Source: an uncultured Clostridia bacterium (GTDB taxonomy: Bacteria > Bacillota > Clostridia > Oscillospirales > Acutalibacteraceae). From it: DNA of 64,000 nt. The stretch spans positions 6,810 through 70,809 of the forward strand of contig CANRZD010000001.1 in assembly GCA_947644325.1 (NCBI GenBank), given 5' to 3'. The notes beneath the pieces are model-generated. The model saw only the letters and a list, made by a program, of their open reading frames with translations. It was not told the DNA's origin and searched no databases. The stretch's first letter is position 1; each line of letters opens with the position of its first letter. Positions 5,561-25,512 of the stretch are shown here, in pieces. The position numbers and the translations under genes were made by a program.

Positions 5561-6409
5561 ATGGCCATGAATGTCCAGGAACGCAAAGAGCTGCAGATCA
5601 CCGCGGAAAAGGTGCGCATGCATATTATCGAGGGCGTCTACCACGCCAAGTCCGGCCACCCGGGCGGCTCCCTTTCCTCAGCGGAAATTTTTACCTACCT
5701 CTACTTTAAGGAAATGAATATCGACCCCACAGACCCCAAAAACCCCGGCCGGGACCGCTTCGTGCTCTCAAAGGGCCACTGTGCCCCGGGCTGGTACGGG
5801 GCCCTGGCCCAGCGGGGGTACTTTGCCCCCAGCGAAATGAAGACCCTGCGCCACATCGGCGCCATGCTGCAGGGCCACCCGGACATGAAGGGCACCCCCG
5901 GCGTGGACATGAGCACGGGCTCCTTGGGGCAGGGGGTCTCGGCGGCGGTGGGCATGGCCCTGGCCGGCAAAATGGACCGGGCCCCCTACCGGGTGTACAC
6001 CCTGCTGGGGGACGGCGAGATCGAGGAGGGCCAGGTGTGGGAGGCCGCTATGGCGGCGGGCCACCACGGCCTTGACAACCTCTGCGTGATCGTGGACTTC
6101 AACGGCCTGCAGATCGACGGCCCTGTGCAGGAGGTGGCCGGGCCCGAGCCCATCGATAAGAAGTTCGAGGCCTTTGGCTTTGAAGTTATGACCATAGACG
6201 GCCACGACTTCGACGAGATAGAGAAGGCCATGGAGGCCGCCAAGGCCGCAAAGGGCAGGCCCTTTGCCATAGTGGCCAAGACCATAAAGGGCAAGGGCGT
6301 GTCCTTCATGGAGAACCAGGCGGGCTGGCACGGCAAGGCCCCTAATAAAGACGAATACGAAAAAGCCATGCAGGAGCTGCGGGACAGGCTGGAGGTGCTG
6401 CAGGCATGA
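5561..6409 (+). CDS. tkt: Transketolase, N-terminal (TPP-binding) subunit
   Basis: SGHPGGSLS, DRFVLSKGH, STGSLGQG, GDGEIEEGQVWEA TPP motif. Confidence 0.95.
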   Translation: MAMNVQERKELQITAEKVRMHIIEGVYHAKSGHPGGSLSSAEIFTYLYFKEMNIDPTDPKNPGRDRFVLSKGHCAPGWYGALAQRGYFAPSEMKTLRHIGAMLQGHPDMKGTPGVDMSTGSLGQGVSAAVGMALAGKMDRAPYRVYTLLGDGEIEEGQVWEAAMAAGHHGLDNLCVIVDFNGLQIDGPVQEVAGPEPIDKKFEAFGFEVMTIDGHDFDEIEKAMEAAKAAKGRPFAIVAKTIKGKGVSFMENQAGWHGKAPNKDEYEKAMQELRDRLEVLQA

Positions 6410-6786
6410 GGCTGCGGTGCATAAATATCGTTTCCCAAGAGCCCCGGCGGCTGGTGGAGTTTTACGAGAAGGTCTTCGACACGCAGGCCCAGGAGATCGT
6501 GCCGGGCCGGTGGGAGCTGCCCGCCGGGGGCGCCACCCTGGTCTTCACCCACACCGACGAGCCGGTGCGGGCGCCTAAGGACAGCTGCGGGCTGGAGTTT
6601 GAAACGGAGGACGTGGACAGGGAATACAGCCGCCTGCAGAAGGCCGGCGTCCCCCTGGGCGCTCCGCCGGTCACCTACCCCTGGCAGTGGCGGGCCTTCG
6701 GCGTGAAGGACCCGGACGGAAACAACGTGGATTTCGTACAATATGTGGGCGACAACAGAAAGGATGGCTGTGGAAATGGCGGATAA
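6406..6786 (+). CDS. VOC/glyoxalase-bleomycin resistance family protein
   Basis: LVEFYEKVF, LEFETEDVDREYSRL, YPWQWRAFGVKDPDGNNVDF; ATGA overlap with the tkt-N stop. Confidence 0.85.
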   Translation: MRLRCINIVSQEPRRLVEFYEKVFDTQAQEIVPGRWELPAGGATLVFTHTDEPVRAPKDSCGLEFETEDVDREYSRLQKAGVPLGAPPVTYPWQWRAFGVKDPDGNNVDFVQYVGDNRKDGCGNGG

Positions 6787-7720
6787 GATCAAGAAGGCGA
6801 CGAGAGAAAGCTTCGGCGAGGCCGTGACGGCCCTGGCGGAGCAGGACCCCAATATCGTGGTGCTGGACGCGGACCTGGCCGAGGCCACCAAGACCAGCAT
6901 CTTTAAGAAGAAGTTCCCCGAGCGCTTTATCGACTGCGGCATCGCGGAGGCCAATATGATTGGTATCGCGGCGGGGCTTGCCACCTGCGGCAAGATCCCC
7001 TTCGCCGCGTCCTTTGCCATGTTCTCGGCGGGCCGGGCCTTCGAGCAGGTGCGAAACTCCGTGGGCTACCCCCACCTGAACGTGAAGATCGCGGGTTCCC
7101 ACGCGGGCATCTCCGTGGGGGAGGACGGCGCCACCCATCAGTGCTGCGAGGACATCGCCCTTATGCGCACCATCCCGGGCATGACGGTCTTAAACCCCTG
7201 CGACCACTATGAGATGCTGGAGGCCGTGAAGGCTGCTGCGGCCCTCAAGGGCCCGGTGTACCTGCGCCTGGGCCGCCTGGCCGTGGAGACCTGCACGGAA
7301 AACGCCCCCGAGCCCTTTGTGCTGGGCAAGGGCCGCACCCTGCGGGACGGCAAGGACATCACCATCGCCGCCACGGGCCTTCTGGTGCAGGAGGCCGTGA
7401 AGGCCGCCCAGGCCCTGGAAAGCGCCGGCATCGACGCCCGGGTGCTGGACATCCACACCATCAAGCCCCTGGATACGGAGCTCATCGTGAAGGCGGCCAA
7501 GGAGACCGGGCACATCGTCACCGTGGAGGAGCACAATATCATAGGCGGCCTGGGCGAGGCCGTGTGCGCCTGCCTGTGCGAGGCCCTGCCCACCCCGGTC
7601 ACCCGCATCGGCGTGAAGGACGTGTTTGGCCATTCCGGCCCGGCGGTGGAGCTCTTAAAGGAGTTCGGCCTGTGCGCCGAGAACATCGAGGCCACCGTAA
7701 AGCGCGTGCTGGGGAGGTAA
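6776..7720 (+). CDS. tkt: Transketolase, C-terminal subunit
   Basis: ATRESFGEA, DADLAEATKT, CGIAEANM, GEDGATHQ, TVEEHNIIGGLG. Confidence 0.95.
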   Translation: MADKIKKATRESFGEAVTALAEQDPNIVVLDADLAEATKTSIFKKKFPERFIDCGIAEANMIGIAAGLATCGKIPFAASFAMFSAGRAFEQVRNSVGYPHLNVKIAGSHAGISVGEDGATHQCCEDIALMRTIPGMTVLNPCDHYEMLEAVKAAAALKGPVYLRLGRLAVETCTENAPEPFVLGKGRTLRDGKDITIAATGLLVQEAVKAAQALESAGIDARVLDIHTIKPLDTELIVKAAKETGHIVTVEEHNIIGGLGEAVCACLCEALPTPVTRIGVKDVFGHSGPAVELLKEFGLCAENIEATVKRVLGR

Positions 7721-7723
7721 GGC

Positions 7724-8161
7724 GTGGGGGAGATTCTGATACGCGAGGCGCGCCCGGAAGACGCCGGGAGCCTTGCGGAGCTCAACAGAGACGAAATGGG
7801 CTACGACTACCCGCCGGACAAGACCCGGGAAAAACTCTGCGCCCTGCTGGAAAGCGGGAAGGATAAAATCCTGGTGGCGGAGCTTGCGGGCCAAGTGGTG
7901 GGCTACGTGCACCTAAACGACTACGACCTGCTCTACGCCGACCACATGAAGAACATCATGGGCATCGCCGTCAGCAGCCGCTGCCGCAGGATGGGCATCG
8001 GGAGGAAGCTCTTGACAGCGGCGGAGGGCTGGGCCAAAGAGAGCGGCGCGGATGCCGTGCGGCTGGTCTCCGGGGAAACCAGGACCGGGGCCCACGCGTT
8101 TTACCGCTCCCTGGGGTACGAGGGGAACAAAAAGCAGCTGAACCTAAAAAAGAAGCTATAA
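7724..8161 (+). CDS. GNAT family N-acetyltransferase
   Basis: IREARPEDA start, AVSSRCRRMGIGRKLL motif A, AHAFYRSLGY. Confidence 0.85.
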   Translation: MGEILIREARPEDAGSLAELNRDEMGYDYPPDKTREKLCALLESGKDKILVAELAGQVVGYVHLNDYDLLYADHMKNIMGIAVSSRCRRMGIGRKLLTAAEGWAKESGADAVRLVSGETRTGAHAFYRSLGYEGNKKQLNLKKKL

Positions 8162-8164
8162 AGC

Positions 8165-8200
8165 AAGGGAGCCGGTGCATGTCCGCACCGGCTCCCTTTT
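8165..8200. terminator. Bidirectional intrinsic terminator
   Basis: 14-bp perfect stem aagggagccggtgc/gcaccggctccctt between convergent genes. Confidence 0.85.
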
Positions 8201-8210
8201 ATGCTGCCGC

Positions 8211-9515
8211 TCAGTGGATATTCTGGCAGAACCGCGCCAGGATGGCGGCGGCCTGGGCCCGGGTGGCGCTGCCCTGGGGGGATAGCAGGCCGTCGCCGGT
8301 GCCGTTAATGAGCCCGCAGCCCACGGCCCAGCGCATGGGCTCCAAAGCAAAGCCTGAGAGGGTATCAAGGTCCCTAAACTGGGAGAGGTCCGCCGAGGCG
8401 GCCACGCTGTAGCCCTTATATTTGGCGTAGCGGTGCAGGAAGGTCACCATCTGCTCCCGGGTGATCACGTCCCCGGGGCCGAAGCGCCCGTTGCCGTACC
8501 CCTGCACGATCTTGTTTTCAGCGGCCCAGGCCACCGGGGCCGTGTACCAGACGCCGGCGGGCACGTCGGTGAACACGTTCTGCCCCTCCTCCGGGGAGCC
8601 CTCCAGCCGGTGCAGGATGGTGACGATCATGCTGCGGTCCGTGGAAACATCCGGGGAAAAGCGGGTGTCCTCCGTGCCTTTCATCATGCTGTGCTCATAC
8701 ACGTACTGAATGGAGCCGTAGGCCCAGTGCTTCTCGTCTATGTCCGTAAAGGGCAGGTACACCCCCGAATCCACGAACACGGCCTCCATGGCCACGTCCG
8801 CATCCGGCATGCGGAAGGTGTACTGGCCATTTCCCATGTCCAGAAGGGCCACGGGCTTGCCCGCCGCCGTCACTGTGAGGGCGGCCAGCTTGTACCCGGC
8901 GTCGGGCTGCACGTACACGGTCACCACCTGGTTGGCCCTGGCGGAGGAGAGCACCTGATAAGTGCCGTGGGCCGCCTGGGGCGCCGAAATGCTGTGGCTG
9001 GCCCCAAAGGGCAGGTCCGGGGATTCCGTGTCGGAGGACTGCACCACCGGCACGGTCTCCAGGGAAGCGTTTGCAAGGCCCCCCGTAAGGGCGTCGGAAT
9101 CCAGCAGGAGCACCCGGGCGCTTTCGGGTATGATGCCCATGCCGCTGACGGAGAGGGCCCCCAGGGTCAGGGCGTTCCCAGAGTTCAGCGCCAGGCTGGA
9201 GACAAGGTACAGGGTGGCCTTGGTCTTGCCGCCGCCACTGGTCACCTGGGCCCCGTAGCCCGGGCTGTAGGCCAGGGGGTCGGCGGGGGAGAGGGAGATC
9301 TGCGCGGGGGCGTAGGTCCCCGCCAGGGTCACCTCCAGGGCCACGCCGTAAAGGGTACGGCCGTCCCCCAGGCCGCTGAGCCCCAGGATCACGTCCCCCT
9401 GGGCCGTCTGCCGGTAGGTAAGGGATACCCCGGAGGCGCTGGCCTTCAGGGGCAGCATCCCTATCACAAGGGCCCATAGGAGCAGAAGCCCTGTCCATCT
9501 TTTCACTTTTTTCAT
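8211..9515 (-). CDS. Secreted SLH-anchored protein: signal peptide, cohesin-like beta-sandwich, InlB-B/Flg_new-like repeat, 3 SLH domains
   Basis: Signal ...LPLKASA; three SLH motifs (FTDIDEKHWAY, FTDVPAGVWY..TREQM, FRDL..ATRAQAA); B-repeat-like VTVYVQPDAGYKL..YTFRMPDADV. The cohesin call is tentative. Confidence 0.8.
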   Translation of the reverse strand: MKKVKRWTGLLLLWALVIGMLPLKASASGVSLTYRQTAQGDVILGLSGLGDGRTLYGVALEVTLAGTYAPAQISLSPADPLAYSPGYGAQVTSGGGKTKATLYLVSSLALNSGNALTLGALSVSGMGIIPESARVLLLDSDALTGGLANASLETVPVVQSSDTESPDLPFGASHSISAPQAAHGTYQVLSSARANQVVTVYVQPDAGYKLAALTVTAAGKPVALLDMGNGQYTFRMPDADVAMEAVFVDSGVYLPFTDIDEKHWAYGSIQYVYEHSMMKGTEDTRFSPDVSTDRSMIVTILHRLEGSPEEGQNVFTDVPAGVWYTAPVAWAAENKIVQGYGNGRFGPGDVITREQMVTFLHRYAKYKGYSVAASADLSQFRDLDTLSGFALEPMRWAVGCGLINGTGDGLLSPQGSATRAQAAAILARFCQNIH

Positions 9516-9528
9516 ATAGAATCCTCCC

Positions 9529-12500
9529 TTACTTCACCTGGACCACCGGCAGGGTGTCGCCGCCGGGGCTGTCCATCCACAGGGTGCGGGCGGTGGGCCG
9601 CTGGCCCCCCGCGCCGGTGGCGCTGTCCGTGCGGTACATCTCCACCATGACCTGGCTGGGCAGAAGGTTCGCCCCGTCGCAGTGGGTCACGTCCTGCAGC
9701 TCGGCTTCCTTCTGCACGTTTGGCACAAAGAGGAACAACCCGTCGCTGATATCGCTGACCTGCTGGTCCTCGGGTATCTCCGCAAAGAGCAGGGCGTAGC
9801 CGTCTATGGGCCGGTTCTCTTCCGCGACCACCAGCTTCTCCGCGCCGTTGTCGTCTACCACGGTCTTGGTGGTGGTGAATTTCCCCCATACCTTTAGGGT
9901 GTTGAACACCGGGTCGCCCCGGTAGGTGCCCATGATGACAAGGGTCCCGGCGGGTATCACTTCGTTGTCATAGCGGTAGTCTTCGGCCAGCCGCCCCATG
10001 AAGCCGCCTTCCTCCGTGCGGAAGGAGACGTCGTCCCCCGCATAGCTGATGAGCCCAATGTCCTTGTCCTGCAGGCCCGCGGGCAGGCCGGTGATGGTGA
10101 CGGTCTTGGCGTCGTAGGTCCATATGCGGGTGTCGGTGCTGCTCGTGCCGGGCTTATTAAAGTATGTCAGGTAGCAGTTTTGGTCGTCCACCGCTTGGTT
10201 GCCCGTGGAGAAATTCCCCTGCCGGGCCTGCACCCGGGTGCCGTCTGATTGGGTGACGGTCACGGTGAAGCCGCCGCTTGCGGGCCGGTTCCCGCCGCTC
10301 AGCTTTATGCCGGAAACGCTCGTCTCGCTATGAAGGGTGATAGTGGCCGTATCCCCGCTGCGGCTGATGGAATAGCTGGAGCTGGGCACGGTCTTGTCGT
10401 AGGCGATGCGCACCTGCCCGGCCTGGGCCCGGCCGATCTCATTGCCCAGGGTGCTGTAGGCTGTTACAGAGTAGCTGAAGGTCAGGTGGTTCCCCGCTGC
10501 GATGGTGTCGGTGTAGGTGACGCCCCCGGCCTTGTGGGGCACAAAGGCAATGGGCTTGCCCTCCCGCAAAATCTCATACCCCTGGATGCAGGGGGCGCTG
10601 GGCGGGGTGATATTGATCTCGATCTCTGTGTCGCTGCCCGCCTTTTTGGCCGCCGTGGCCGAGAAGGAGGCCGCGTGGCTGGCCGCGCCCTGCAGGCGGT
10701 CCCGGCGGCTCTGGTCGTTTAAGTACCAGATGGCCCGGGCCTCCTTGGGGTAGCTCGATAGCTTCCGCTTGGCGGCGTCGCCCAGTACCAAGCCCCAGCG
10801 GGTGAAGAACTCGCTTAAATCCTTCTGGGCCACCCCGGCGGCGGTGAGGGCCACCTTCTCGTCGTAGGTGGGGGAGGGCACGTCCCCCAAATAGGTCCCC
10901 GCCTTCCAGGCCTTGAAGAACTGGTTGTAGAACTCCGTAGGCGTCTGCTCATCGTAGGCCAGATGCAGCTGCCAGTACATGCCCAGTTGCACGAACACGT
11001 CGTTGGAAGCCCCGGGCAGGCCCTGGGCCACCTTGTTGAAGACGGCGTTATACTTGCCGCTCTTTTCCAGGCGCGAGGGCAGGATGCCTTTTCCTCCGTC
11101 GTAGGTCTGCACCATAAGGGCGTAAATGTTGTTGGTGATCTCCGCCTTGCCCAGCTTATCCATGTTGTGGCCAATCTCATGGGCAATGCCCCAGCCGAAG
11201 AGGCTGTTGGCCTGGGCGGAGGCAGGCAGCTTCGAAATGGGCGAGCCGGTGCACAGCCCCGCGCAGGAGGCGTACCCCACGCCGATGTGGTTTCCGGCGG
11301 CGTACATGAAGGCCCCGGAGAACATCTGCATGCAGCGGATGTTCTGGCGGGTCTGCATGTCGCTGCCGTCAATGCCCTGGGTGGCGCTGCAGATGCGGGT
11401 GATGTCCTCCCAGGCCAGCACCGTGTCGTAAAGGGTGTTCACAATACTCCCGCTGGGGGCGCTGTTTTTCACCGCCAGGGCGGGCAGGGACAAAAGCACC
11501 GAAGGGGTGGATATTTCCGTCACGTTGAGGCACTTTGTGGCCTTGTTTGCCTCTGTGGCCCCCAGCTTGCCTACATAGCCGTTAAGCTCCGTCACGTAGG
11601 CGCTGATGACCTCCCGGCGGGCGGCGTCGCTCATGGTGCGCCAGCCGTCCAGGGCCAGCACGGGCATATCTGCAGCCCTGCGCACATGGAGCTTCACCAT
11701 GGCGGCGTTGGAGCCCCCGTAGGTCACGTAGAGGCTGCCGCCCCGCTCCGTGCTCTGGCTGCCGATCTTCGGCACCGTAAGGGTGTTGCGGCCGTTTGTG
11801 AGGGTGCCCATCTTGGCCCGCCAAGTAGAGGCCTCGGCGTTAAACTGGGTGGCGTACACGGTCACGGTCTCCCCGGCCGGTATGCCGGCGGCGTAGACGG
11901 TGATCTCCTGCCCGGCCCTGGCGGCCACGCCCAGGGGCTGCAGCTCGCTGCCGGACTGCTTGTACTTCTGGCTGTCCGCACTGGCGCTGCGGGCCTGCAG
12001 GCCGTCTATGATGACGCCAGAGGAGGAGCCGGAAAGCAGCTCCTGGGCCAGGTCCAGCTCGTCCTTCAGGGTGTTTATATCCAGGTAATAGAAGCGCTCG
12101 TCGCTGTTTAAGCGGGTGCGCAGGACCGAGATGGTCTGGGTGGTCACGTGGCTTCGCAGCTGGGTGCGCAGCTCGTTTGCGAAAAGGGCGCTGATCTCGT
12201 CGGGCAGGCAGCGGGCGGGGTCGTACTCCATAAAGGAGAGCTGGGAGCAGCTGGTGATGTTGTAGGCGTCCTGCTCCACGGCCACGCTGATCTGCCGCAC
12301 CTGCCGCTGGGCCCCGAAGGGCAGTATGGCGAACTTCGACGTGGGGATGGCGTTCTTATTGGGGATGTTGGGCCAGGTGAACACGTCGCCGCCGTCGGTG
12401 TTGCCGTTATTGTCCTTGCCGCCCTTGTCCGGGTCGGGCACGATCAAATGCCCCGGGCCGCTTAGATCCTCCCCCTCGTACCACACCTGCACGCTGTAGG

Positions 12501-14466
12501 CCCGCAGGAACTTAGGGTAATTCCCGTCCAGCCGGGGGGACCACAGCACGGCCTGCAGGTCCACGGGCTCCTTGAAGGTGGTGATGACGTGCTCGTTGCC
12601 GTGCCAGTTGGCGGCGGTCCAGTGGGTGCGGTAGTCGCCGTCTATCATGTTTTCCGGGGAGAAGGGCTTGTCGGCGCTGTACTCCGCCGCCGCGTAGTTG
12701 CGGGGGGCCCCCAGGCGTATGCTCTCTATCTTCTCCCGGCCCAGAAGCCCGGAGGTGGGAAGCCCCGCCGGGCGGTCGTAGGCCACGGCCTTGGGGGTGC
12801 CCTCGGCAACGCGGGAGGCCCCGCTCTTCCCGGCGTCGTTGCCGGCTATGACGTAAAGCTGGTAGGCGGTGCCGTTTTTCAGGCTGGAGATCTGGGTGCT
12901 GGTGCCCCGCAGGCTGCCGCCCACCTGCTGGTAGGGGGCGTTCTCCGCCTTTTCTTTATAGAACACCTCATAGTAGGTGGCGGACTTGGACTGCTTCCAG
13001 GAAATGCCCAGGGCCCCCTCCAGCTCTGTGACCTGCACCATGTCCGGGGCGTCGGGCCGGCGGCTGGGCTGGGGGGTGGCGTCCACAGCCGGGCAGGCTT
13101 CGCCCTCCCAGCCCTCGGCGGTGGGGGTCACGGTGAACCAGTATTTCTTAAGGTTCTCAAGCCCCGTCACCTCCGCGTAAGGGGTCATGACGCTGAGGCT
13201 CTTTTTCGCGCCGCCATCGGCCCAGTAGTCCACCCGGTAGCCGGTGACGTTTGGCACCTCCCGCCACTTGAGGGCGGCCTTCTCATGGCCCGCCGCGGCC
13301 GTAAGGCCCGTGACCTGGCGGTTGGGGGCCATGGGGTTTTCGGGCACGATGTCCTTTAGGAACTGGATGGTCTCCACCACCACAAAGCCCCCCGGGGCCT
13401 TGTCCACGGAGATGGTCACTTTCTTCACAGGCACCCGCCTGCCCAGTTCCAGGGTGTTGGTGCGCACCCCCTCGGTGCGGGCGATGGCGTAGACCCCCGC
13501 AGGCAGCGCGGCGCTGAAGGACAGGGCCTCGCTCTGTCCGTCGGTGTATTCGATAACGGCCCGGCCGCTTTCCAGCCCGCCGTTTTCCGGGGCGTTCAGG
13601 GCGATCTGGGCCATTTCCACGGGGCTGGCCCCAAAGTCGATGGGCAGAGAAAGGCTCTCCCCCTGAGAGCCCAGTTTGACGGCCCGGCCGTTATCAGAGA
13701 ACAAATCTGCCAAGGCCCCTTCCGTAGCATAAGCGCCCCCGGACGCCAGGGCCTGCATGTCCACAGGCGGGCTCAGAAGGGCCGTGTCCTTGATCTCCGC
13801 GCCGCCCTGGGCGTTTATGTTCTGGTTTACGTACACCAGGTCCGAAAGCCCGATGGCGTCGTCCCCGTCCAGGTCATAAGCAGCGTACAGGCTGCGGTCC
13901 CCAGAGCCCAGGCGCTGGGAGAGAAGGTCCCGGTCTATCTCGTTCACACGGCCGTCGCCGTTGAAGTCGCCTAAAGTAAAGGTGGCGTCCCCCGTGCCCA
14001 GGATCAGGTGCTTCGAGTGGGTCTGCAGGGGGATGCTGTAGGAAAAGGCTTTGTAGCCGGAGCCCGTGAACTTCAGCACGTAGTTGCCCCGGGGCAGGTT
14101 CCCGATGGAAAGGGTCACGTACCGGGGCCAGCCGGAGGTATCCTCCCCGCCGTCGCTGTTCTTGAGCTCTACAGACGCCGGGTACGGCCCCACAGACTGA
14201 GCGCCCGTGTCCCACAGCCGGGCCTCTCCCACCTGGCTACCGTTTTGAAACAGGGCGGCCCTTACGGCGTGGTTCTGCAGGGCGGTGCGCCGCTGGGCGT
14301 AGTCCAGCCGCAGGGTGGCCTGTATCTCCCCCAGGGTGGAGGCGTCCTCCAGGCTGGGCGCGGCTTCCGGCAGGAATTCGTCCTCCATGGCCCAGGCGGG
14401 GGCGCAGCAGGTAAGCGCCAGGACCGCCGCCAGAAGGACGCTGCAAAGTCGTTTCACAAGCTTCAT
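9529..14466 (-). CDS. Secreted M60-like (enhancin/mucin) zinc metallopeptidase with dockerin, FN3 and CBM32/discoidin-like modules
   Basis: WGIAHEIGH (11167-11181) plus downstream AEITNN gluzincin ligand; M60_N-like ELQPLGVAARAGQEITVY; two EF-hand-like dockerin repeats; FN3 motifs LKWREVPNVTGYRVDY and ISWKQSKSATYYEVFY. Confidence 0.9.
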   Translation of the reverse strand: MKLVKRLCSVLLAAVLALTCCAPAWAMEDEFLPEAAPSLEDASTLGEIQATLRLDYAQRRTALQNHAVRAALFQNGSQVGEARLWDTGAQSVGPYPASVELKNSDGGEDTSGWPRYVTLSIGNLPRGNYVLKFTGSGYKAFSYSIPLQTHSKHLILGTGDATFTLGDFNGDGRVNEIDRDLLSQRLGSGDRSLYAAYDLDGDDAIGLSDLVYVNQNINAQGGAEIKDTALLSPPVDMQALASGGAYATEGALADLFSDNGRAVKLGSQGESLSLPIDFGASPVEMAQIALNAPENGGLESGRAVIEYTDGQSEALSFSAALPAGVYAIARTEGVRTNTLELGRRVPVKKVTISVDKAPGGFVVVETIQFLKDIVPENPMAPNRQVTGLTAAAGHEKAALKWREVPNVTGYRVDYWADGGAKKSLSVMTPYAEVTGLENLKKYWFTVTPTAEGWEGEACPAVDATPQPSRRPDAPDMVQVTELEGALGISWKQSKSATYYEVFYKEKAENAPYQQVGGSLRGTSTQISSLKNGTAYQLYVIAGNDAGKSGASRVAEGTPKAVAYDRPAGLPTSGLLGREKIESIRLGAPRNYAAAEYSADKPFSPENMIDGDYRTHWTAANWHGNEHVITTFKEPVDLQAVLWSPRLDGNYPKFLRAYSVQVWYEGEDLSGPGHLIVPDPDKGGKDNNGNTDGGDVFTWPNIPNKNAIPTSKFAILPFGAQRQVRQISVAVEQDAYNITSCSQLSFMEYDPARCLPDEISALFANELRTQLRSHVTTQTISVLRTRLNSDERFYYLDINTLKDELDLAQELLSGSSSGVIIDGLQARSASADSQKYKQSGSELQPLGVAARAGQEITVYAAGIPAGETVTVYATQFNAEASTWRAKMGTLTNGRNTLTVPKIGSQSTERGGSLYVTYGGSNAAMVKLHVRRAADMPVLALDGWRTMSDAARREVISAYVTELNGYVGKLGATEANKATKCLNVTEISTPSVLLSLPALAVKNSAPSGSIVNTLYDTVLAWEDITRICSATQGIDGSDMQTRQNIRCMQMFSGAFMYAAGNHIGVGYASCAGLCTGSPISKLPASAQANSLFGWGIAHEIGHNMDKLGKAEITNNIYALMVQTYDGGKGILPSRLEKSGKYNAVFNKVAQGLPGASNDVFVQLGMYWQLHLAYDEQTPTEFYNQFFKAWKAGTYLGDVPSPTYDEKVALTAAGVAQKDLSEFFTRWGLVLGDAAKRKLSSYPKEARAIWYLNDQSRRDRLQGAASHAASFSATAAKKAGSDTEIEINITPPSAPCIQGYEILREGKPIAFVPHKAGGVTYTDTIAAGNHLTFSYSVTAYSTLGNEIGRAQAGQVRIAYDKTVPSSSYSISRSGDTATITLHSETSVSGIKLSGGNRPASGGFTVTVTQSDGTRVQARQGNFSTGNQAVDDQNCYLTYFNKPGTSSTDTRIWTYDAKTVTITGLPAGLQDKDIGLISYAGDDVSFRTEEGGFMGRLAEDYRYDNEVIPAGTLVIMGTYRGDPVFNTLKVWGKFTTTKTVVDDNGAEKLVVAEENRPIDGYALLFAEIPEDQQVSDISDGLFLFVPNVQKEAELQDVTHCDGANLLPSQVMVEMYRTDSATGAGGQRPTARTLWMDSPGGDTLPVVQVK

Positions 14467-14682
14467 AAAGATCCCTCTCCTTTTTTCGCGTCATTTCTCC
14501 AATCTTCTAAAAATATTATAGCAAATTTTCCCATCCTGCAACAGGGCCATTTCCATAAAACCTCAAAATCACAAGCCCTTGTGTAAATTCTTTTTGTACA
14601 CCTTGCTTTTAGTGGCTGTCCGTGATAAAATACAGGAAAAGCACGAGAAAAAATCTACAGCAGAAAGGAACGTGCAGACGCT

Positions 14683-15552
14683 ATGATTTCAAAGGTATAT
14701 TTCTCCAAGACCATCACCCCCGAAAAGGTGCTGGAGCTCTTTAAGCTTTTGCAGAAGGACCTGCCCGGAAAGACCGCCATCAAGGTCCACTCCGGGGAGG
14801 TGGGCAACCAGAACTTCCTGCGGCCCGACTTCTGGAAGCCCATCGTGGACTATGTGGGCGGCACCGTCACCGAGTGCAACACCGCCTATGAAGGCCAGCG
14901 CAACACCACGGAAAAGCACCTGAAGGCCATCTCCCTTCACGGCTGGGACGAGTACTTTGACTTCGACCTGCTGGATGCCCAGGGCCCGGACCTGGAGCTC
15001 TCCATCCCGAACGGCCAGCAGATACAGAAAAACTACGTGGGCAAAAACCTAAAAAATTACCAGTCCCTTCTGGTGCTCTCCCACTTCAAGGGCCACCCCA
15101 TGGGCGGCTACGGCGGGGCCATCAAGCAGCTGTCCATCGGCGTTGCCTCCTCCTTCGGCAAGGCCTATATCCACGGCGCCGGCGACCCGGAGAAGATCTG
15201 GTCCTCTGACCACGACTCCTTCCTGCGCTCCATGGCGGACGCCGCCGCTTCGGTGGTGGAGTTCTTCGGGGGCAACGCCGCCTATATCAACGTCATGAAG
15301 AACATGTCTGTTGACTGCGACTGCTGCGCCGTGGCCGAGGACCCCTGCATGAAGGACATCGGCATCCTGGCTTCCTTAGACCCCGTGGCCATCGACCAGG
15401 CCTGCATCGACCTGGTGTACGCCGCCAAGGACGACCCCGGCCAGGCCCATCTCTTAGAGCGTATCGAGAGCCGCAACGGCACCCTGACTATTGACGCCGC
15501 CGCCAAGCTGGGCTACGGCAGCAAGGAGTACGAGCTCATCGAAATCCAATAA
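14683..15552 (+). CDS. DUF362 family Fe-S protein
   Basis: AIKVHSGEVGN, SHFKGHPMGGYGGAIKQL, DCDC, SLDPVAIDQAC; upstream promoter TTGCTT-N17-TAAAAT (14603-14631). Confidence 0.8.
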   Translation: MISKVYFSKTITPEKVLELFKLLQKDLPGKTAIKVHSGEVGNQNFLRPDFWKPIVDYVGGTVTECNTAYEGQRNTTEKHLKAISLHGWDEYFDFDLLDAQGPDLELSIPNGQQIQKNYVGKNLKNYQSLLVLSHFKGHPMGGYGGAIKQLSIGVASSFGKAYIHGAGDPEKIWSSDHDSFLRSMADAAASVVEFFGGNAAYINVMKNMSVDCDCCAVAEDPCMKDIGILASLDPVAIDQACIDLVYAAKDDPGQAHLLERIESRNGTLTIDAAAKLGYGSKEYELIEIQ

Positions 15553-24360: not shown

Positions 24361-25512
24361 ATGAAAAAGAAACTTCTGTCCCTGCTGCTGGCGGCAAGCC
24401 TGCTCTTGAGCCTGCCCGTATTCGTGCAGGCGGCGGCTACATCGGGGACCAGCGGGCAAACGCGCTGGAGCTACAACAAATCTACCAGAACGCTGACCTT
24501 TTCCGGCAGCGGCTCTACCGGCAATTACAATTACTTTACAGGGTCCGGGGACACTTATTATCCATACGCGGACTATATGTATACCTGGAAGAAGGGCTAC
24601 GCCCAAAAAGTGGTGGTGGAGGAAGGGATCACCCGTATAGGGGACTGCTTTATCGCGTCTTCCGGGGTGACCGAGGTGGTACTGCCCAAAACCCTTACCA
24701 CCATCGGCCCCAGGGCTTTTATATTCTGCAACAGCCTTAAAACGATCAATATCCCCGCCAGCGTCAAGACCATCGAGGTAAGCGCCTTTGCCCAGTGCGC
24801 AGACGCCAGCGGCGACAAGAAAACCGCAGGCAAGGGCCTTACGGTCAATTATGAGGGCACCCGTGCCCAGTGGGCCCAGATCCATTTCAATGCGTACAAT
24901 CTAAACCCCGCAGACTACGCCCTGGCCAATGCCAAAATCAACTACCTGGGCGACACCCCCTACCCCGGCACCCCCTTTACGGACATCAACGGCCACTGGG
25001 GCGCGGAGCCCATCAAGTGGGCCTATGAGAAGCAGCTGTTCTCCGGCGTCAGCGGCACGGAGTTCGGGCCCGGCGGCAATATGGACCGGGGCATGCTGGT
25101 CACCGTGCTGCACCGCTTGGCCGGCAAGCCCGCCCCCTCCGGCGGCTCCTCCTTCAGCGATGTATCCAGCGGCCAGTATTTCGCCGACGCCGTGCTGTGG
25201 GCAAGCGATAACGGCATTGTAAAGGGCACCGGCGCGGGCTTTAACCCCGGCGGCCTCATCACCCGGGAGCAGGCGGCGGTCATCCTCTACGGCTATGCCG
25301 TGCAGTTCGGGAAGGACACATCCATCACCCCGGGCGTCCTCACGGGCTTCACGGATAAGGGCAGCATCTCCACCTGGGCCCAGGAAGCCGTGGAGTGGGC
25401 CGTGAGCCATCATGTCCTCAATGGCAGCGGCTCGAAGCTGAACCCCGGCGGCACCGCCACCCGGGCCGAAGTAGCCCAGATCTTCTACAACTGCCGCGCC
25501 CTGCTGGCGTAA
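24361..25512 (+). CDS. Surface protein with BspA-type leucine-rich repeats and 3 SLH domains
   Basis: Signal peptide; LPKTLTTIGPRAF..C, IPASVKTIEVSAF..C repeats; SLH motifs FTDINGHW, FSDVSSGQYF, ATRAEVAQ. Confidence 0.88.
   Translation: MKKKLLSLLLAASLLLSLPVFVQAAATSGTSGQTRWSYNKSTRTLTFSGSGSTGNYNYFTGSGDTYYPYADYMYTWKKGYAQKVVVEEGITRIGDCFIASSGVTEVVLPKTLTTIGPRAFIFCNSLKTINIPASVKTIEVSAFAQCADASGDKKTAGKGLTVNYEGTRAQWAQIHFNAYNLNPADYALANAKINYLGDTPYPGTPFTDINGHWGAEPIKWAYEKQLFSGVSGTEFGPGGNMDRGMLVTVLHRLAGKPAPSGGSSFSDVSSGQYFADAVLWASDNGIVKGTGAGFNPGGLITREQAAVILYGYAVQFGKDTSITPGVLTGFTDKGSISTWAQEAVEWAVSHHVLNGSGSKLNPGGTATRAEVAQIFYNCRALLA

Follow-up and report, generated by a model that had tools for sequence, protein, structure and literature searches.

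A dockerin-bearing M60-like peptidase and its SLH-anchored partner: a putative one-enzyme surface tether in gut Clostridia

Introduction

In A. thermocellus, OlpA, OlpC and SdbA are single-cohesin anchoring proteins that carry S-layer homology (SLH) repeats (PMC4045903). C. perfringens forms cohesin (X82)-dockerin complexes among its host-glycan enzymes NagJ/GH84C, NagH and NanJ (PMC12997984), and in the mucinolysome of Limousia, dockerin-bearing mucin enzymes, peptidases included, are tethered to the wall via a cohesin-bearing anchor (PMC12997984; preprint PMC12632915). M60-like proteins (PF13402) with glycan-binding modules were surveyed in 2012 by Nakjang et al. (PMC3267712), and that survey lists two M60-like proteins with a Dockerin type 1 domain. 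Here we analyse a 64,000-nucleotide stretch of contig CANRZD010000001.1 (hereafter the window) from an uncultured Clostridia bacterium of the Acutalibacteraceae, GCA_947644325.1, in which a secreted M60-like peptidase with a dockerin (gene 1) is followed by a secreted, SLH-anchored protein (gene 2, the partner). All window coordinates are positions in this stretch, and both genes of this cassette lie on the minus strand. On balance, we favour the view that this putative two-gene operon tethers a single mucin-type protease non-covalently to the cell surface, working like a cohesin-dockerin anchor of the OlpA/SdbA type through a cohesin-like module.

Conserved pairing of the two genes

A sequence-only reading of the window had placed two open reading frames (ORFs) 13 bases apart and had described gene 1 as a peptidase with two EF-hand-like repeats forming a dockerin and with no LPXTG, SLH or transmembrane anchor of its own, and gene 2 as a secreted protein with a beta-sandwich followed by three SLH domains. 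Both ORFs are found there, at 9529-14466 and 8211-9515, and each element of this description is upheld by the results given below. The SLH protein is, moreover, a dedicated partner of the peptidase. A genome scan with one genome per species yielded 80 M60 loci, at least 594 relatives being reported; the scan loci, the window and six earlier loci provided 86 informative loci from different species, with M60 identities of 41-80%. In 85 of these, the ORF beginning at the M60 stop codon, usually through the 4-base ATGA overlap seen in most orthologous loci, gives a match to the N-terminal domain of the partner (N-domain). At the single miss, L079, the following ORF has a recognisably related, more divergent N-domain, so that all 86 loci are paired. 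In five unrelated neighbourhoods the M60 gene is directly followed by a homologue of the SLH protein (42-78% identity), the flanking genes differ and are unrelated between loci, and the most distant N-domain relatives retrieved by exhaustive search likewise come directly after an M60 gene. The pairing of M60 peptidase and N-domain strongly exceeds chance.

The exhaustive HMMER search, which covered 1.84 billion representatives, recovered 194 clusters with the N-domain profile. Nearly all are built from a signal peptide, the N-domain and an anchor, the N-domain being always N-terminal and in single copy. SLH repeats form the anchor part in most; a C-terminal membrane helix takes this place in some (P0258), and the neighbour at L137 is a dockerin-bearing M60 peptidase. 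The anchor part is Big_2 in the partner at L015 and Cu_amine_oxidN1 in the N-domain protein of one short contig (L140:363-1502). At the level of protein architecture, a constant N-domain head joined to an exchangeable anchor is what an adaptor would be expected to look like.

On L140, a 2.5-kb metagenome contig, the N-domain gene is preceded by a repetitive AEGL-rich ORF and not by an M60 gene; it is the sole possible exception to the pairing, on a contig too short to judge. Partners usually measure 340-600 aa, and one from an Oscillospiraceae metagenome-assembled genome (MAG) reaches 1049 aa, carrying a long insert besides the N-domain and SLH repeats (L096:4119-7265, plus strand). A Butyricicoccus MAG has a second ORF with N-domain and SLH at the locus edge, ~7 kb downstream of the cassette and encoded on the other strand (L071:19927-20637, minus strand); it may represent a further cassette or a duplicate of the adaptor.

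A conserved dockerin on a peptidase that lacks an anchor

The gene 1 protein matches Pfam Peptidase_M60 with 72.5 bits against a cut-off of 25.8 (aa 1014-1225). Its catalytic module matches the C. perfringens ZmpB, ZmpC and ZmpA structures in phmmer searches at E 4e-29 to 3e-19, with 7jfs, 5kdj, 5kdn and 6xsz at E 4e-29 to 4e-25. HEIGH is the sole HEXXH motif of the protein; the third zinc ligand, E1109, lies eight residues on, and the HEIGH...E motif is invariant among 28 M60 homologues. The HEXXH motif with its downstream Glu and the Pfam profile place the protein among the M60-like, ZmpB-type gluzincins, and by similarity to the characterised ZmpB, ZmpC and BcM60 enzymes we infer that it cleaves O-glycosylated mucin-type peptides. 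The domain order is signal peptide, beta module, dockerin, a further module with no assignment, two fibronectin type III (FN3) modules, F5/8 type C and Peptidase_M60; an F5/F8 type C domain is on record for many M60 orthologues. In a Lawsonibacter MAG (L069:418-5439) the M60 gene is broken into two ORFs, one of 901 aa and another starting 121 bases further on, which may reflect a frameshift, a pseudogene or an assembly error.

The signal peptide is the only hydrophobic segment in the 1645-aa peptidase, and a check by Pfam, hydrophobicity and motif search revealed no SLH repeats, no C-terminal helix and no terminal LPXTG; the sole LPXTG-like string, LPTSG at residue 569, is internal. The two calcium loops, GDFNGDGRVNEID and YDLDGDDAIGLSD, were both found in the protein, with ligands D167-N169-D171-D178 and D198-D200-D202-D209. 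Dockerin_1 scores 23.6 bits against a cut-off of 22.9 in the protein scan and 29.5 bits in a six-frame genome search. A family profile of aa 27-235, built from 19 family members and searched against the PDB sequences, matches at least 20 solved dockerins at E 6e-7 to 1e-3, ranking above calmodulins; these include dockerins of CelS, Xyn10B, C. cellulolyticum, A. cellulolyticus, R. flavefaciens and C. perfringens NagH. With two tandem EF-hand-like loop segments, a score above the Pfam cut-off and similarity to solved dockerins, the protein has the features of type I dockerins (PF00404), and, as far as sequence can tell, the dockerin is real. Its N-proximal placement in the peptidase is unusual.

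Across 120 homologue clusters, the residues of the calcium loops are 89-100% conserved, and G166, D167, D178, D209 and L210 are invariant. The module that precedes the dockerin joins it directly, with no linker, and carries a conserved LGTGDxTFTLGD motif; both parts are kept in all 84 complete M60 orthologues. The dockerin is thus under selection, judging from the invariance of its calcium ligands and from the retention of dockerin and pre-dockerin module in every complete orthologue. The pre-dockerin module is a possible equivalent of an X-module; a family-profile search with this region found no X-module sequence match in the PDB.

The partner as a cell-wall anchor

The 434-aa partner begins with a signal peptide, followed by a region (aa 28-165) to which Pfam assigns nothing and which AF2 models as a nine-stranded beta-sandwich. 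Its three SLH repeats score 108 bits in Pfam, match the SLH of B. anthracis Sap at E 2e-14 and, in Foldseek, structure 3pyw at E 5e-10 with a TM score of 0.83 normalised to the target; three tandem repeats in a trimer-like fold correspond to the description of PF00395. The Ig-like spacer between the N-domain and the repeats is missing from approximately one third of the orthologous partners. The host genome encodes a CsaB-like pyruvyl transferase (PF04230, 130 bits) and 54 SLH repeats in about 20 ORFs, several of whose products fuse SLH directly to large enzymes. Because of this transferase and these approximately 20 SLH proteins, SLH anchoring is, by sequence criteria, a normal surface route of the host organism. 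Three large host proteins (1888, 1691 and 1290 aa) carry the SLH repeats fused directly, unlike the M60 enzyme with its separate anchor, and the window holds a second SLH ORF of 391 aa at about 24973-25476 on the plus strand (genome C1:31782-32285).

Is the N-domain a dockerin receptor?

The AF2 models have a pLDDT of 88 for the full-length partner and of 93 for the N-domain alone. The N-domain shows nine strands in 132 residues, and cohesins are nine-stranded jelly rolls of ~140 residues, a comparison of strand count only. When the N-domain alone was searched with Foldseek, 31 of the best 50 PDB matches were cohesins, of types I, II and III, and the best match was 4ums (E 5e-4). With the full partner model, the cohesin+FN3 pair of C. 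perfringens GH84C (2w1n, E 6e-8) was the best non-SLH match, and further cohesin entries ranked next.

Mirror-tree analysis of 75-81 M60/partner pairs, expressed as the partial correlation (r) of distances controlled for the rest of M60, revealed that the partner N-domain co-varies with the N-terminal part of the peptidase. The partial r is 0.55 for M60 aa 38-340 and 0.43-0.44 for the dockerin (aa 160-225), the latter reached by none of 2000 permutations, and the fine-scale profile peaks at 0.41 over aa 198-237, the second dockerin repeat. The catalytic domain gives -0.09 and the C-terminus 0.20, and the SLH region of the partner reaches only 0.09-0.18 against any M60 segment. Local recombination does not explain the signal, because, of the whole M60 gene, the stretch encoding the N-terminus is the most distant from the partner gene. 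These values also bear on a different role for gene 2, that of a surface-bound inhibitor or chaperone keeping the peptidase inactive or folded until its release. Strict 1:1 pairing and translational coupling are the only points in its favour; the N-domain co-evolves with the N-terminal third and not with the catalytic domain, the wall and membrane anchors and the spacer suit display, and Pfam and Foldseek detected no likeness to known protease inhibitors, which makes such a role very improbable.

A number of observations weigh against the N-domain as a receptor that works in the manner of a cohesin. Pfam Cohesin has no match on the partner at E<=1 and none in the six-frame genome search, the N-domain profile matched no cohesin among the PDB sequences, and the search of the 1.84 billion representatives gave no link from the N-domain to cohesins. 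An hhalign comparison with an alignment of 30 canonical Clostridia cohesins returned Prob 0.25%, E 0.24, over 23 columns. Foldseek TM scores to cohesins (4ums, 2bm3, 2zf9, 3ul4, 5nrk and others) are 0.28-0.41, with an rmsd of 8-12 A, as against 0.41-0.50 for CBM2 modules, a GH20 N-domain and an Ig-like protein. The co-evolution signal extends beyond the dockerin, with a partial r of 0.49 for the pre-dockerin region, 0.41 for the post-dockerin region and 0.35 for the FN3 region, and shared rate variation can inflate correlations between the distance matrices of related sequences. Residue-level covariation between M60 and the N-domain, as normalised mutual information with average product correction over 81 pairs (Neff 65), was uninformative, its top pairs being near-invariant columns that reflect single lineages. 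None of the 84 complete M60 orthologues lacks the dockerin or the partner, and with the two never naturally separated the role of the dockerin is not isolable. Finally, lone dockerins with no known partner are common outside cellulosomes.

A structure-based survey of cohesins required a TM-align score above 0.65, with CBM3 as the negative control (PMC13463774); the N-domain lies under this threshold, its values being Foldseek TM scores and not TM-align scores. Because the sequence tests are negative and the TM scores stay below 0.65, the N-domain is not filed as a cohesin here: it is modelled as a cohesin-like beta-sandwich, too divergent to be demonstrably a cohesin. The sequence-only reading had gone further and named a cohesin paired with the dockerin. 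The profile search that it proposed bore out Dockerin_1 and not Cohesin, and the cohesin identity of the N-domain is not sustained by Pfam, the PDB profile search, hhalign or the TM scores; what survives is the rank order of the fold matches, with 31 cohesins among the best 50.

In another reading, no complex forms. The SLH protein would then be a surface glycan-binding protein or adhesin that draws the cell to mucin by its CBM2-like sandwich, while the peptidase is released, and the two genes would be co-transcribed by virtue of a common substrate. CBM2 modules (6qfs, 3ndy_E, 2czn and 5dhd) do match the N-domain at TM 0.34-0.50, equal to or above the cohesins, and a cohesin sequence signal is absent. 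The N-domain is, however, essentially confined to genes beside one peptidase family, unlike a general glycan binder, and its alignment has neither conserved tryptophans nor a CBM2-like pattern of exposed aromatics. It also co-evolves with the peptidase N-terminus, and a conserved lone dockerin would be left functionless. We consider this reading unlikely.

The co-evolution correlations are suggestive only, and their breadth would fit an X-dockerin-like composite interface but also another N-terminal contact module. A complex might form through the pre-dockerin, post-dockerin or FN3 region, with the dockerin serving as a calcium-stabilised structural element or binding something else. A signal that spans the whole N-terminal third and the FN3 region is consistent with such an arrangement, as is an N-domain that is not demonstrably a cohesin. 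Against it stand the invariant calcium ligands of the dockerin, the fine-scale peak over its second repeat and the dominance of cohesins as a class among the fold matches. A broad signal would also be expected from a dockerin-based tether, as the module beside the dockerin in type II X-dockerin complexes also contacts the cohesin. Contact that bypasses the dockerin therefore seems improbable to us.

Dockerins and cohesins in cassette-bearing genomes

No Pfam cohesin was found in 11 cassette-bearing genomes, that of the window and ten others. The M60 dockerin is the only dockerin match in nine of the 11; the ten others hold 0-2 dockerins each, and the host genome has two dockerins and no Pfam cohesin. 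No other partner for the M60 dockerin is thus visible in these genomes, which, together with synteny and co-evolution, lends indirect support to the N-domain as its receptor. A cellulosome-like complex, with a multi-cohesin scaffoldin and many dockerin enzymes, is not encoded by these 11 genomes, and the 'protease-some' of the sequence-only reading gives way to a proposed 1:1 tether that has no scaffoldin. That reading had also called for a genome scan for other dockerin proteins, which located one more in the host genome, on an unrelated membrane protein. This second dockerin (C41:12055-12222) is C-terminal in a 541-aa protein (locus L001:58-1683) with an N-terminal membrane helix, a middle part with no assignment and a Pro/Ser/Glu-rich linker. 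A partner for it was sought in the neighbouring gene, which encodes an ABC transporter and nothing cohesin-like; the adaptor of the M60 peptidase could also serve the 541-aa protein as a second client.

Proposed mechanism

The gene 1 product would be secreted by the Sec route as a ZmpB/M60 O-glycopeptidase equipped with glycan-binding and FN3 modules, and the calcium-binding dockerin, fused to the preceding beta module near its N-terminus, would serve as the docking part. The gene 2 product would be a Sec-secreted adaptor whose three SLH repeats bind the pyruvylated secondary cell-wall polymer. Its N-domain, held out by the Ig-like spacer, would bind the dockerin region of the protease, which would then be held non-covalently on the cell wall, one per adaptor. 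We infer physical contact between the two proteins, the surfaces involved, its dependence on calcium and mucin as the substrate.

More tentatively, and with the balance tipping slightly against it, the N-domain of ~130 residues may represent an unrecognised family of dockerin receptors that is invisible to Pfam and profile-profile methods, being either a cohesin that has diverged very far or a similar beta-sandwich that reached this function independently. Such a family would be paired 1:1 with the pre-dockerin and dockerin unit of ZmpB-like mucinases across many gut Clostridia, its anchor repeatedly exchanged (SLH, membrane helix, Big_2 and possibly others), and would constitute a portable 'display kit' of patchy distribution, probably moving between lineages.

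Organization of the putative operon

The features of the two genes are collected in Table 1. Upstream of the M60 gene, TTGCAG at 14541-14536 would be a poor -35, with a 15-nt spacer to the extended -10. Gene 1 ends with TAA at 9531-9529 and gene 2 begins with ATG at 9515-9513; the 13-base gap between them contains no terminator. The hairpin that lies 3' of gene 2 has a 12-bp GC-rich stem and a T-rich tail. A scan for consensus promoters and terminators returned nothing convincing and missed both elements read by eye, the hairpin because its T run is interrupted. A single transcript for both genes is plausible from this layout.

Table 1. Coordinates of the two genes, their protein modules and the putative expression signals in the window
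Feature	Position	Strand	Basis
Promoter-like extended -10, TGcTATAAT, upstream of the M60 gene	14515..14523	(-)	read by eye from sequence
Ribosome-binding site of gene 1, GGAGAGGG	14480-14473	(-)	read from sequence
Gene 1: secreted 1645-aa M60-like (ZmpB-type) metallopeptidase with N-proximal dockerin	9529..14466	(-)	ORF + Pfam + phmmer
Signal peptide of gene 1, aa 1-26, ...APAWA/MEDE (slash, cleavage position)	14389..14466	(-)	sequence
Pre-dockerin beta-rich module, aa ~45-160	13987..14334	(-)	in 84/84 complete orthologues
Type I dockerin, aa 165-218, two Ca loops	13813..13974	(-)	Pfam Dockerin_1 + profile matches
Two fibronectin type III modules, aa ~385-556	12799..13314	(-)	Pfam fn3, 48 bits, 2 stretches
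F5/8 type C (CBM32-like) segment, aa 599-667	12466..12672	(-)	Pfam 24.2 bits, below cut-off 28.2
ZmpB/ZmpC-like catalytic module, aa 757-1313	10528..12198	(-)	phmmer to structures + Pfam Peptidase_M60
HEIGH zinc motif, aa 1096-1100	11167..11181	(-)	sequence
C-terminal ~330 aa of gene 1, beta-rich, no domain assignment, no anchor motif	9532..10527	(-)	Pfam + motif scan
Intergenic gap, 13 bases, with ribosome-binding site GGGAGG (9528-9523)	9516..9528	(-)	sequence
Gene 2: secreted 434-aa SLH-anchored partner (putative adaptor)	8211..9515	(-)	ORF + Pfam
N-domain, aa 29-160, nine-stranded beta-sandwich, proposed receptor of the dockerin region	9036..9431	(-)	AF2 + Foldseek
Ig-like spacer (Flg_new_2, divergent InlB B-repeat), aa 175-248	8772..8993	(-)	Pfam 27.6 bits
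Three SLH repeats, aa 255-431, cell-wall binding module	8223..8753	(-)	Pfam 108 bits
Intrinsic-terminator-like hairpin after gene 2: GGGAGCCGGTGC, loop GGACAT, GCACCGGCTCCC, then TTGCTTTAT	8158..8196	(-)	read by eye

An RNA element was sought because a c-di-GMP riboswitch precedes C. difficile CD2797, which is adjacent to Cwp10 and co-regulated with it by c-di-GMP and Spo0A (PMC6200980, PMC4028888). No riboswitch or other RNA element was found in the window, nor was there one ahead of the M60 gene in 12 orthologous loci.

Distribution and genomic context

The cassette is present in one of 201 genomes sampled from the GTDB family of the host, and genomes of the same genus lack it. Within the order it occurs in 11 of 401 genomes, in four of 178 genera and three families. 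Named hosts include Acutalibacter, Oscillibacter, Flintibacter muris, Lawsonibacter, Pseudoflavonifractor, Butyricicoccus and Neglectibacter, many of them from mouse-gut catalogues; public annotation describes the two proteins only as 'M60 family metallopeptidase' and 'S-layer homology domain-containing protein'. The patchy distribution suggests horizontal transfer of the cassette. A mobile element was considered as an explanation of the patchiness and set aside: the flanking genes are housekeeping genes (transketolase, GNAT, DUF362, DUF218, amidohydrolase) that also flank the locus in the closest relative, and the GC content does not deviate.

On either side of the cassette, at 14683-15552 and 5561-8161, both on the plus strand, the window encodes DUF362, a GNAT acetyltransferase and the N and C parts of a split transketolase. 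The same flanking genes are found at L005, the locus of an 80%-identical orthologue; the insertion is therefore older than the split of these two lineages.

Significance

Mucin-cutting proteases shape how gut bacteria feed on the mucus layer and penetrate it, and whether the enzyme is released or held by the cell decides who gains from its products. If the proposed tether is real, many gut Oscillospirales (Oscillibacter, Acutalibacter, Flintibacter, Butyricicoccus, Neglectibacter and relatives, largely from mouse-gut genomes) would use a hidden dockerin receptor to hold a ZmpB-like O-glycopeptidase on display. Tethering of the cohesin-dockerin type would then reach past carbohydrate enzymes and past detection by sequence models, and 'orphan' dockerins in cohesin-free genomes would gain a function. 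Cultivable hosts of the cassette are Flintibacter muris DSM 110149, Acutalibacter caecimuris and A. intestini.

Comparison with known systems

In the literature searched, 'M60-like' and 'dockerin' occur together only in PMC3267712, and no account of the partner or of the two-gene unit was found. The gene 1 protein resembles the M60-like proteins of that survey in combining a gluzincin domain with glycan-binding modules; neither a partner gene nor a receptor is mentioned in the survey's passages on dockerin, SLH, S-layer and cell wall.

The mucinolysome is built on a different scale: it comprises 3-6 scaffoldins carrying up to 12 canonical cohesins, together with dozens of dockerin enzymes and a wall anchor of the LPXTG type, whereas the cassette consists of one enzyme, one putative non-canonical receptor and an SLH anchor. 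In the C. perfringens complexes, as proposed for the cassette, a gut bacterium uses cohesin-dockerin pairing for enzymes that degrade host glycans, and the catalytic module of gene 1 is closest to C. perfringens ZmpB, ZmpC and ZmpA. In C. perfringens, however, the enzymes themselves bear the cohesins, which join one enzyme to another, whereas the candidate receptor described here sits on a non-catalytic wall anchor.

A close architecture is that of the A. thermocellus anchors. OlpA and OlpC combine a type I cohesin with SLH and bind enzyme dockerins directly; SdbA combines a type II cohesin with SLH and binds the X-dockerin of CipA. Like them, the partner is secreted and has one N-terminal candidate receptor module and three C-terminal SLH repeats, its proposed ligand being a dockerin-bearing secreted enzyme, and the cohesins of OlpA (3ul4) and SdbA (2bm3) are both among the Foldseek matches of the N-domain. 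Unlike theirs, the N-domain has no detectable cohesin sequence similarity and TM scores of 0.3-0.4, the cargo is a peptidase and not a carbohydrate-active enzyme, and the dockerin is N-proximal and internal and not C-terminal. Enzyme and partner come strictly 1:1 from a single operon, and the genomes that carry them lack any further cohesin and, as a rule, any further dockerin. The proposed mechanism is that of the OlpA, OlpC and SdbA anchors.

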